DNA of 59,895 nt from Candidatus Onthousia faecavium (GCA_018711135.1 DVIS01000046.1:1-59895), one strand, 5' to 3'; shown: positions 23,119 to 36,048, numbered from the stretch's first letter. The notes: a model not told the origin generated them from the letters alone. Numbers and translations: made by a program.

Positions 23119-23866
23119 TAGTTCTACCTCCTATTAAAGTAAAGAAAGCATCTCTTAGATTAGTTGTTTTAGTAGATTTCTTAATATCAATAGGAGTACC
23201 TTCTTTAATAACTTTACCTTTATTAATCATAATAACATAATCACAGATATTTTCTGCTTCCTCCATATAATGAGTAGAATATAAAATTATCTTACCACGT
23301 TTCTTTTCTTCTTTAATAAAGTCTAAAATAATCTGACTAGAAATAATATCAAGGCCACTAGTCGCTTCATCTAAAATATAGTATTTAGGATCATGAACTA
23401 AGCATCTTGCAATATTAACTCTTTGGGTTTGACCTGTAGATAAGTTTTCAATCCTATTATAAAGAAAGCTATCCATGTTTAATTTTTTAGATATTTCTTT
23501 TATCCTAGTTTCTAATTTACTACCATCTACTCCATAAATATTGCCACACATTTTTAATAGTTCATATGGTGATAATGTATTATAAAGTTTGGTATTACCA
23601 GATAAATAGGCAATATTTTTCTTGATTTCGATCTCATTATGAAGGTAATCTAACTTTCCAAAAGAAATTGTCCCACTAGTAGGAACAAGAATACCTGCAA
23701 TCATTCTAAGCAAAGTTGTTTTCCCGGCTCCATTTGGTCCTAATATGCCAATGATTTCTCCATCTTTTGCTTTAAAACTAATACCATCATCAGCATAGAA
23801 CTCTTCTTTTTTATGTTTATCATTATATTTGACAAACTTTTTCTTTAAGTCTTTAATTTCTAGCAT
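23111..23866 (-). CDS. ABC transporter ATP-binding protein (NatA-like)
   Basis: Walker A GPNGAGKTT, signature 'LSTGQ', 'ILDEATSGLD', 'STHYMEEAE'. Confidence 0.9.
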   Translation of the reverse strand: MLEIKDLKKKFVKYNDKHKKEEFYADDGISFKAKDGEIIGILGPNGAGKTTLLRMIAGILVPTSGTISFGKLDYLHNEIEIKKNIAYLSGNTKLYNTLSPYELLKMCGNIYGVDGSKLETRIKEISKKLNMDSFLYNRIENLSTGQTQRVNIARCLVHDPKYYILDEATSGLDIISSQIILDFIKEEKKRGKIILYSTHYMEEAENICDYVIMINKGKVIKEGTPIDIKKSTKTTNLRDAFFTLIGGRTNE

Positions 23867-24072
23867 AATTCACCTCTTCCAGGCAAAATTATAGCATAGC
23901 TGTTACAACGAGGGCAATATAAAAAGAAGAACTTTTTGTCTTCTGTTTTTTCTATAAAATGTTATTTGTTCGATTATTTTGTTTTAATATATATGCTACA
24001 TTATTAACGTAATATCTAGTTGTTTAGGTACTATCCCCTTAAACTTATAATTTTATACTGTTGAAAGGGAAA

Positions 24073-24171
24073 ATGGATATGAGAAAAATAGAAAAATTTC
24101 TTTGTTTAATCACTATCCTTCTTATTATTTTGAATTATTTCATTATAATTAAATTAGTACCTAACAAGTGA
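24073..24171 (+). CDS. Small hydrophobic peptide, candidate type I toxin (locus B)
   Basis: MDMRKIEKFLCLITILLIILNYFIIIKLVPNK*; SD-like GAAAGGGA; own promoter; not in the ORF track. Confidence 0.55.
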   Translation: MDMRKIEKFLCLITILLIILNYFIIIKLVPNK

Positions 24172-24249
24172 AAACTAGGTATTCCCTTTTTTATTGTATG
24201 TAAATTTTCTTTACATATACATAGTACCATAAGTATATGACATATTCAA
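24160..24249 (-). ncRNA. Candidate antisense antitoxin RNA and its promoter (locus B)
   Basis: Minus-strand TTGAAT(24244-24249)-N17-TACTAT(24221-24226) with extended TG, downstream of the ABC operon terminator and pointing into the peptide gene. The 3' end is uncertain. Confidence 0.4.
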
Positions 24250-24276
24250 ATACCGATTATGCCCAATTATATATAG

Positions 24277-24322
24277 AAAAAGATAGGACTTATTATCACC
24301 TTAATAATCTCCTATCTTTTTT
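24277..24322 (-). terminator. Intrinsic terminator of the TetR-ABC-ABC operon
   Basis: AAAAAGATAGGA / TCCTATCTTTTT inverted repeat with an additional inner stem. Confidence 0.7.
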
Positions 24323-35563: not shown

Positions 35564-35741
35564 AGTTTCCTTCTTTCTATAGGAAACTATTTTAGCACGA
35601 AAGTTGGTGGTGGTATATATTTTTTTTGATAAAATGCAACTTGTTCGATTGTATTACAAATATATTTATAGTATATTAGCTACTAGGAAATACTGACTGT
35701 TGAGTACTTGCCTCCATCTTATTAGGAAGGAGGCTGATGTT

Positions 35742-35831
35742 ATGAAGAAGAAAGATTTACTAATCTCTTTTCTAATATTAATCATCATTTTATTAATAGT
35801 TTCTTTAGTGATTCTATCGATAGAAAAATAG
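35742..35831 (+). CDS. Small hydrophobic peptide, candidate type I toxin (locus A)
   Basis: MKKKDLLISFLILIIILLIVSLVILSIEK*; strong SD GGAAGGAGG sequestered by upstream GCCTCC; promoter TTGTAT-N17-TATATT (35649-35677). Confidence 0.7.
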   Translation: MKKKDLLISFLILIIILLIVSLVILSIEK

Positions 35832-35973
35832 TACTCAATCTAACGATTAAGTACTAAACTCAAATTAACATGGGTAAGTACTCAACACGTGAAAGTTAAG
35901 TATTTCCCATTTTTATTTTATGCAAGACTCTTGCTTACATACTTATATTAGCATATATTTACCGAGTTGACAA
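35824..35973 (-). ncRNA. Candidate antisense antitoxin RNA (~115 nt) with promoter and terminator (locus A)
   Basis: TTGTCA(35968-35973)-N17-TAATAT(35945-35950) with extended TG. Terminator AGTACTTAATC-GTTA-GATTGAGTACT-ATTTTT overlaps the peptide stop codon. Confidence 0.6.
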
Positions 35974-36048
35974 GATATTTAGGTTATCATAATTGGCTCT
36001 ACTTATAATATTAACACAATCTTTAACATATAAATTAGTGGTGATATT

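Follow-up and report, generated by a model that had tools for sequence, protein, structure and literature searches.

Locus B, a stretch of ~240 bases within a 59,895-nt sequence of Candidatus Onthousia faecavium (the window, whose full-length numbering is used throughout), is probably a real member, though a damaged one, of a large and as yet undescribed family of type I toxin–antitoxin-like modules in small-genome uncultured gut Bacilli. The locus is flanked by ATP-binding cassette (ABC) transporter genes, all on the minus strand: a DrrA-like ABC ATPase and an ABC-2 permease ('natAB') on the left and an MsbA-like exporter pair on the right. Between them, the plus strand holds a small open reading frame (ORF) for a hydrophobic peptide, which is faced by a minus-strand promoter for a predicted antisense RNA. 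An initial annotation had read locus B as a type I toxin–antitoxin pair with the same architecture as a second locus in the window, locus A (35620–35975), and a different peptide. As a whole, the observations behind that reading are confirmed and the interpretation is partly supported. The two loci do belong to one family, with the antisense promoter/5' hairpin module and a TTGTTCGA motif in common, but their architectures differ, because ~52 nt present in each of the 14 aligned close homologues are missing from locus B.

The missing segment lies between two copies of a repeat, TAGTACCTA. In intact members one copy stands at the end of the ORF and the other in the 3' untranslated region (3' UTR), ~52 nt apart. 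Locus B retains a single TAGTACCTA at 24155–24163 (plus strand), which marks the deletion junction and doubles as the 3' arm of P2, the second of two helices that close the predicted toxin mRNA. In an alignment of 15 homologues, and among the ~160 copies examined, locus B is the sole member without this segment. The distance from the stop codon to the conserved 3' module is 42–94 nt in 84 of 113 further copies (those with a detected peptide) and ~0 in locus B. The positional orthologues beside natA in two other genomes (G017 and G008) are intact, as is a close paralogue on contig C41 (C41:11085–11445; 86% identity). An exact search for the junction in JGI metagenomes gave 0 matches, and a looser pattern gave five, all unrelated chance hits.

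The deletion changes the end of the peptide from VPTP to VPNK, takes out the antisense terminator together with the GGGA (5') arm of the toxin terminator, and cuts P2 from 14 to 10 bp. The remaining 10 bp are perfect; the P2 partner survives only because both ends of the deletion fall within the repeat. As a remnant of two separate terminators there is a chimeric hairpin (UACCUA/UAGGUA, 24156–24192) on both strands, with U6 on the plus strand and a UAAUUUAAUUAU tail (24141–24152) on the minus strand. Its folding energy of −6.5 kcal/mol (plus) and −5.0 kcal/mol (minus) is not better than that of shuffled sequences on either strand. Locus B also has 26 substitutions of its own at alignment columns that do not vary among its six closest homologues, including changes in the Shine–Dalgarno sequence (SD; GGGGAG to GGGAAA), the predicted mRNA 5' end (GGAAUA to GUAAUA) and both −35 boxes. 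Relative to the group peptide, the locus B peptide has I12T and I19N in the membrane helix and the terminal TP to NK change. We consider locus B most likely to be an attenuated or decaying copy and infer a loss of function.

A family of convergent modules in gut Bacilli

The 3' 70 nt of locus B recur elsewhere in the host genome (1.28 Mb, 28% G+C), where a profile of the 3' part finds 11 module copies, including locus A (35895–35955); within locus B the match (nhmmer, E = 3.3e-16) spans 24173–24241. The parts follow one order in all copies: a promoter, a ~60-nt leader, an SD and a hydrophobic ORF of 25–33 amino acids (aa), a 3' UTR, a U-run terminator, a hairpin and an opposite-strand promoter facing the ORF. 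Locus A and the other host copies share with locus B this order, the antisense promoter/5' hairpin module, the TTGTTCGA motif and the first closing helix, P1. Locus A differs in its peptide subtype (MKKKDLL...), in the subtype-specific P2 'key' (GAGUACUU versus GGUACUAU) and in being intact, with its 3' UTR and antisense terminator in place.

Within the genus, 22 of the 25 genomes gave DNA matches, a single genome having as many as 22; at that stringency, 16 genomes from outside the genus gave none. The conserved 3' part reaches further, to 63 of the 201 genomes of the order and 41 of 98 genera; among the matches listed, all belong to the same family. A pattern scan of GTDB yielded more than 117 loci from chicken, rabbit, mouse, human and goat hosts, in metagenome-assembled genomes labelled uncultured Bacilli, Tenericutes, Erysipelotrichaceae, Candidatus Onthousia or Candidatus Ventrenecus.

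The peptides of 113 modules fall into five subfamilies: MRKxEKFLC...KIVPTx (the locus B type), MKTKTFIIKVLK...VIKK, MKKKDLLISFLIL... (the locus A type), MSKKDFLI... and MTKREFSQF.... The ORF is open in most copies, and variable sites in the family ORFs are distributed 26/15/36 over codon positions 1/2/3, so that on this sequence evidence it behaves as a coding sequence. In the locus B group, an identical peptide occurs in six copies from five other species; the 30-aa consensus peptide is MRKIEKFLCLIIILLIILIYFIIIKLVPTP. The locus B peptide is itself a hydrophobic ORF of 30 aa with its own SD, within the size expected of type I toxins (<60 aa). The hydrophobic 30–32-aa ORF reported by the initial annotation (24073–24171, on the strand opposite to its neighbours) is thus borne out, and a chance ORF was rejected as an explanation because homologues are conserved.

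By sequence, the family appears undescribed and distinct from known families. In Rfam the modules have no match at gathering thresholds, nor at E ≤ 5. Pfam, which holds models of Fst and Ldr, and NCBIfam gave no peptide match with E < 0.08 and matched no toxin family; PHROGs and PADLOC gave no peptide match, and phage records, plasmid records and IMG/VR held no match to the module. A profile of the B-type peptide searched against 1.84 billion cluster representatives gave eight matches, each a longer ORF wrongly called over the same peptide and without a name. We found no description of such modules for these lineages in the literature. A mobile element resembling a miniature inverted-repeat transposable element was set aside: inspection of the conserved ends by eye showed no terminal inverted repeats, and synteny of the natA-adjacent site extends over 12 genomes.

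Roughly counted from sequence, just ~5–6 of the 11 copies in the host genome look intact. Partly decayed copies lie at C47:749–811, C47:2685–2736, C35:1372–1432 and C39:35790–35860; one has a GTG-start ORF, two encoded peptides are truncated (VKIKPFILRLLKSCVFIILSLTYIY, MTKRELSLFIIILLLFL) and one copy is without a recognisable ORF. Two copies on contig C4 (C4:35345–35416, or L003, and C4:12394–12463, or L006) consist of antisense promoter, hairpin and terminator with an A-type 3' UTR remnant, and the toxin ORF is absent upstream. Judged by sequence, they are antisense genes left as orphans, whose RNAs may still base-pair with 16–17 nt of other toxin mRNAs. On contig C51, a tRNA gene (L005:1357–1429) lies within ~100 nt of a B-type module (C51:28073–28400).

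Closure of the predicted toxin mRNA and the candidate antisense gene

In intact copies, the start of the predicted mRNA (GGAAUAYCUAG...UUAGGUACUAUCCC) pairs with the end of the transcript (GGGAUAGUACCUAA...CUAGGUAUUCC), such that the first ~30 nt engage the last ~45 nt through P1 and a 14-bp P2. The duplex has a predicted energy of ~−42 kcal/mol (z ~−9) in intact copies and −22.8 kcal/mol in locus B, and the minimum free energy (MFE) of the whole mRNA is −42 kcal/mol in locus B versus ~−75 kcal/mol in intact copies. The plus-strand RNA of locus B is more stable than any of its 200 shuffled versions (z = −4.1). P1 is shared by every subtype. The sequence of P2 differs with each peptide subtype, yet its two arms remain complementary. 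Cognate key pairings average −23 kcal/mol, compared with −12 kcal/mol across subtypes, and only 0.5% of cross-subtype partners equal the cognate.

The two closing helices show strong covariation. An alignment that joins the 5' 32 nt to the 3'-terminal 48 nt in each of 50 distinct copies has standard pairs in 95.0% of cells; shuffling lowers this to 85.1% (the observed value is not reached in any of 500 shuffles) and sliding the partners to 31–46%. Of the 27 closure pairs, 18 have changed on both sides. Two complementarities described in the initial annotation can be placed in this framework. The leader element TTAGGTACTA (24024–24033) and TAGTACCTAA at the ORF end (24155–24164) do form a perfect 10-nt inverted repeat, but this is the 5'-UTR/3'-UTR helix of the family, moved beside the ORF by the deletion. 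Likewise, TTCCCTTT (24182–24189) is complementary to AAAGGGAA (24064–24071) as stated, but is not the partner of the SD: in intact members it forms the 3' arm of the terminator and pairs with the mRNA 5' end. The SD partner predicted in MFE folds is UCCCCUU in the 5' UTR (24034–24040).

The sequences of this upstream anti-SD and of the SD change in step among subtypes (UCCCUUUC/GAAAGGGGA, CUCCUUU/AAGGAGG and GCCUCC/GGAGGC), and folding models make sequestration of the SD by an upstream anti-SD hairpin likely.

The convergent minus-strand promoter recognised by the initial annotation (TTGAAT-N17-TACTAT) is present, and the same architecture recurs in 137 non-redundant copies, where TTGacA stands exactly 17 nt before TGnTAyTAT; the T, T, G and A positions are kept in 121–131 of the 137, and the spacer is variable in sequence. 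The predicted antisense RNA of every subtype contains a 5' hairpin, an A-run and a key-bearing complement of the toxin terminator, and in every subtype a hairpin with a U-tract lies 105–125 nt from the antisense start, inside the last toxin codons. The intact antisense RNA is predicted to be ~120 nt long and to span only the 3' UTR and the final toxin codons. In the C41 paralogue the antisense terminator hairpin has an energy of −14 to −15 kcal/mol (z −3.8).

Alignment-free folding of 33 copies gave 27 in which the minus-strand version of both antisense hairpins is the more stable, since its G·U pairs become A·C mismatches on the other strand; as the copies are related to each other, we treat this bias as supporting evidence only. 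Together with the conserved promoter and the terminator that follows it in intact copies, it predicts an antisense gene overlapping the toxin mRNA. RNAalifold, applied to a MAFFT alignment of the antisense RNAs, found no more than the middle hairpin, as that alignment does not bring the terminator hairpins of different subtypes into register. At the level of the family, the covariation of the closing helices and the conservation of the promoter support a type I toxin–antitoxin-like reading.

Proposed mechanism and alternative explanations

The arrangement suggests a scheme in which transcription, toxicity and antisense action are what we infer. An extended −10 promoter would drive a ~235-nt mRNA for a single-helix membrane peptide of 25–33 aa, with a positionally conserved hairpin predicted over the SD. 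By likeness to hok and aapA1, 5'–3' closure would keep the primary transcript inert. The antisense RNA would pair with the 3' ~105 nt of the mRNA and most likely lead to RNase III decay and/or an untranslatable mRNA, as in bsrG/SR4 and txpA/RatA; carrying the same key as the mRNA 5' end, it would be a competitor of that end for the 3' UTR. At locus B, the two TAGTACCTA repeats would have recombined, with loss of ~52 nt and fusion of the ORF end to the 3' UTR, and both RNAs, if made, would probably terminate poorly, overlap extensively and read through each other. The predicted antisense RNA of the C41 paralogue matches the 3' end of the locus B mRNA perfectly over 23 nt, the toxin-less C4 antisense genes match it over 16–17 nt and the locus A antisense over only 10 nt; on these matches, cross-talk within the B subtype is likely. 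Between loci A and B, the antisense RNA of either finds complementary runs of only 8–10 nt in the mRNA of the other, which makes plausible the earlier prediction that the two antitoxins do not cross-neutralise.

The closest known parallels are the Gram-positive type I systems bsrG/SR4 and txpA/RatA, in which a toxin mRNA and a convergent antisense RNA overlap at their 3' ends by ~75–120 nt, and in which pairing at the 3' ends leads to RNase III cleavage and, for bsrG, also to a tighter SD helix (PMC4147584). The present family resembles them in its convergent 3' overlap (~105 nt predicted in intact members), its small hydrophobic putative toxin, an SD predicted to lie in a helix and an antisense RNA that would act far from the start codon. 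It differs in having no peptide or RNA sequence similarity to them, in peptide length (25–33 aa here versus 38–59 aa), and in that the antisense target also pairs with the 5' end of its own mRNA. It resides in the core chromosome rather than in a prophage or skin element, combines many subtypes with one antisense promoter module and is known here from sequence alone.

Closure of the toxin mRNA through a long-distance 5'–3' interaction, which holds the primary transcript inert, is a property of hok and aapA1 (PMC5416894). The family shares this feature with hok/Sok of plasmid R1 and aapA1/IsoA1 of Helicobacter pylori, in reduced form at locus B. AapA1 is also 30 aa long, both systems have multiple chromosomal copies that are often inactivated, and frequent decay of aapA1/IsoA1 copies is documented (PMC5416894). 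In those systems, however, it is the 5' leader or the translation start that the antisense RNA targets, and the mRNA becomes active through 3' trimming, whereas the antisense RNA of this family is predicted to cover the 3' end; they also belong to Proteobacteria and Campylobacterota rather than Bacilli and show no sequence similarity. The par system (fst/RNA II) of Enterococcus faecalis pAD1 is similar in its convergent RNAs and Gram-positive host, and the locus B hairpin with its A-run and U-run superficially looks like a shared terminator. The peptide has no Fst/Ldr match, intact family members have two separate terminators, the locus B hairpin is weak, and no 5' direct repeats of the par type (DRa/DRb) were seen.

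It is in this last comparison that the strongest challenge to a damaged locus B lies. In the rival reading, which keeps to the view of the initial annotation, it is a fully working, streamlined pair; its A-run/U-run hairpin would then be a bidirectional terminator shared as in par of pAD1, and a ~70-nt antisense RNA would still control the toxin. Several observations weigh on that side and against our assessment. Locus B retains an open ORF, the TG and −10 boxes of both promoters, a perfect 10-bp helix between leader and 3' end, and a hybrid hairpin with U6 on the plus strand and a U/A-rich tail on the minus strand; the plus-strand RNA is unusually stable, as given above, and polar helix residues also occur in at least one other subgroup (MRKMEKFLCYIIFSLVFVIISLIF...). 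Its divergence from the orthologues (85–88% identity) equals that of the natA flank (88%), so the private substitutions need not mean relaxed selection, and the deletion is known only from an assembled sequence. Locus B could, on these sequence features, be a working minimal variant. The family-level reading has its own weak points. The covariation set was chosen partly on energy, the 5' segment being the GGAAW motif of the best duplex and copies weaker than −25 kcal/mol being excluded. The unpaired probability of the SD is not below that of controls with both UTRs shuffled (0.18 versus 0.17), and sequestration is therefore not claimed as demonstrated. The peptides match no known toxin family in Pfam, NCBIfam, PHROGs or PADLOC. 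We nevertheless judge a fully working pair unlikely: the deletion is unique among ~160 copies, the hybrid hairpin at −5 to −6.5 kcal/mol does not rise above shuffle level, the SD, the mRNA 5' end and both −35 boxes are privately changed at positions invariant in the six closest homologues, and decay is also seen in same-site copies from G015 and G018.

Two further explanations concern what the family, or its minus-strand promoter, is for. The peptides might be ordinary small membrane proteins, such as transporter regulators or envelope stress peptides, tuned by a cis-antisense RNA. Their lack of similarity to known toxin families fits this idea, as does a module that is chromosomal, absent from the phage, plasmid and IMG/VR collections and fixed beside natAB in 12 genomes. 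High copy number, several interchangeable types, frequent decay and toxin-less antisense genes fit selfish or addictive modules better, and a closed mRNA with a dedicated antisense RNA carrying a subtype key is a hallmark of type I toxins (PMC5416894, PMC4147584), which leaves an ordinary function improbable. It is far less credible that the minus-strand promoter is a distal natAB promoter with a long leader and that the plus-strand peptide is not expressed, the outcome that would have overturned the initial annotation. With the antisense terminator gone, only a weak hairpin (23921–23948, −6.2 kcal/mol) stands between locus B and natA, so some natAB read-through is conceivable. The promoter and 5' hairpin, however, occur at 11 sites in the host and hundreds elsewhere with no link to natAB, intact relatives have their own terminator after ~120 nt, and natA has a good promoter of its own. 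The recurrence at 11 unrelated places in the host genome, together with the natA promoter, supports assigning the minus-strand promoter to the module.

Read as type I-like modules, the family would add a widespread, high-copy example from a reduced-genome, uncultured gut lineage, with a design that joins 3'-end antisense pairing, as in the Bacillus systems, to the 5'–3' mRNA closure of hok and aapA1, features known separately before. Because the subtype-specific key covaries, its specificity rules are directly testable. Locus B itself would be a dated example of module decay through repeat-mediated loss of an antitoxin terminator. It also carries a warning for annotation: a damaged copy may appear complete by eye.

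The natA-upstream site and the layout of locus B

A module lies just upstream of the natA promoter in every natA-bearing genome of the genus (12 genomes). Four of these (G000, G017, G008 and G015) have a B-type cassette at the site and eight other species have an MSKKD-type cassette, of which at least one is without a start codon. From this distribution across the genus it follows that the module is old at the natA site, that cassettes there have undergone exchange or differential loss, and that decay is recurrent. In G015 (G015:C55, L019/L057) a B-type module stands in tandem with an MSKKD-type module, and a separate deletion fuses the B-type ORF to the region of the antisense 5' hairpin, giving MRKIEKFLCYVIFSLIFVIIVLLYVIFLYIFIVS. 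As this deletion is independent of that in locus B, decay has occurred at the natA site more than once. L182 (G018:C85), an MSKKD-type copy at natA, has three tandem copies of ATATGTGGTAGT in the toxin promoter region and an ATA in place of the ATG start, and is another decayed copy at this site. Across the natA sites of the 11 other genomes (L176–L183 and L055–L058), the two cassette types suggest exchange or differential loss between conserved ends.

A more speculative extension, which we regard as possible though doubtful, is that the modules form a cassette system. The conserved ends, namely the toxin promoter region and the antisense promoter module, would then have a regulatory role and also act as homology arms for swapping toxin cassettes between fixed chromosomal sites, and the 14-nt key would set both the self-closure of the mRNA and the antisense that neutralises it. 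Paralogues and toxin-less antisense genes would make up a network of cross-protection or anti-addiction, in which the locus B toxin would be kept harmless by the 23-nt match to the C41 antisense. Were this true, locus B would be a natural experiment in which a toxin has been stripped of its own antisense terminator.

On the plus strand of locus B, a motif, AAAATGTTATTTGTTCGATTAT (23954–23975), abuts the toxin −35 box. Its family consensus, AAAATGTATCTTGTTCGATTG, is also found at 35629–35650 in locus A and adjoins the toxin −35 in every toxin subtype within the genus, and is mostly absent from copies in other genera; a regulator site and a recombination arm are both possibilities. The toxin promoter (23974–24002), identified from the 15-homologue alignment, comprises a −35 box TTATTT (TTGTTT in the family), a 17-nt spacer with TG at 23994–23995, and a −10 box TACATT at 23997–24002. 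The −35 region contains private substitutions at 23976 and 23981, and the A to G change at 23981 creates an alternative, shifted promoter (TTGTTT 23979–23984/TATTAA 24002–24007). From the promoter, transcription is predicted to start near 24009. The mRNA, with ends placed by promoter spacing and by the U6 at 24187–24192, would span 24009–24192, ~184 nt compared with ~235 nt in intact relatives.

Within this predicted mRNA, the 5' arm of P1 (AAUAUCUAG, 24011–24019) is followed by the 5' arm of P2, the subtype key (UUAGGUACUA, 24024–24033), and by the anti-SD UCCCCUU (24034–24040), which pairs with the SD in predicted MFE structures. The SD (AAAGGGAA, 24064–24071) is weaker than that of the family (AAAGGGGAG), with private G to A changes at 24070 and 24072. 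Read from the first in-frame ATG, the ORF (24073–24171) encodes 32 aa, MDMRKIEKFLCLITILLIILNYFIIIKLVPNK. We favour the second ATG at 24079 and a peptide of 30 aa (MRKIEKFLCLITILLIILNYFIIIKLVPNK, 24079–24171), because the first ATG is missing from other subgroups and the SD stands 6 nt upstream of the second.

On the minus strand, the antisense promoter (24221–24249) has its −35 box TTGAAT at 24249–24244, a 17-nt spacer with TG at 24229–24228, and its −10 box TACTAT at 24226–24221; a simple promoter scan misses it (8 of 12 matches). The antisense start is predicted from this promoter near 24214–24216, and the RNA would begin with a 5' stem-loop (24197–24217; −5.4 kcal/mol, z −2.3) inside the 3' module that is conserved family-wide. 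A minus-strand ORF of 31 aa (24135–24230) was set aside, as it begins upstream of the predicted antisense start.

The module is bounded by two features that the initial annotation had also recognised. On the right, the terminator of the MsbA-like ABC operon (24277–24321, both strands) has 12-bp perfect arms and an energy of −17.3 kcal/mol (z −3.4). On the left is the natA promoter on the minus strand (23888–23917; TTGCCC-18-TATAAT with a TG, 10 of 12 matches), whose flank is conserved at orthologous loci. Between this promoter and the module, the weak minus-strand hairpin at 23921–23948 (AGAAGA/UCUUCU followed by U5; z −1.5) could, on its predicted fold, halt leftward read-through, and orthologous loci have a similar hairpin and U-run at the matching position. 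Further left, inside natA and antisense to the ABC ATPase coding sequence, the plus strand at 23175–23241 gives a sub-threshold Rfam match to the Staphylococcus small RNA sau-31 (35.3 bits against a gathering threshold of 50, E = 0.01), which is probably due to chance.

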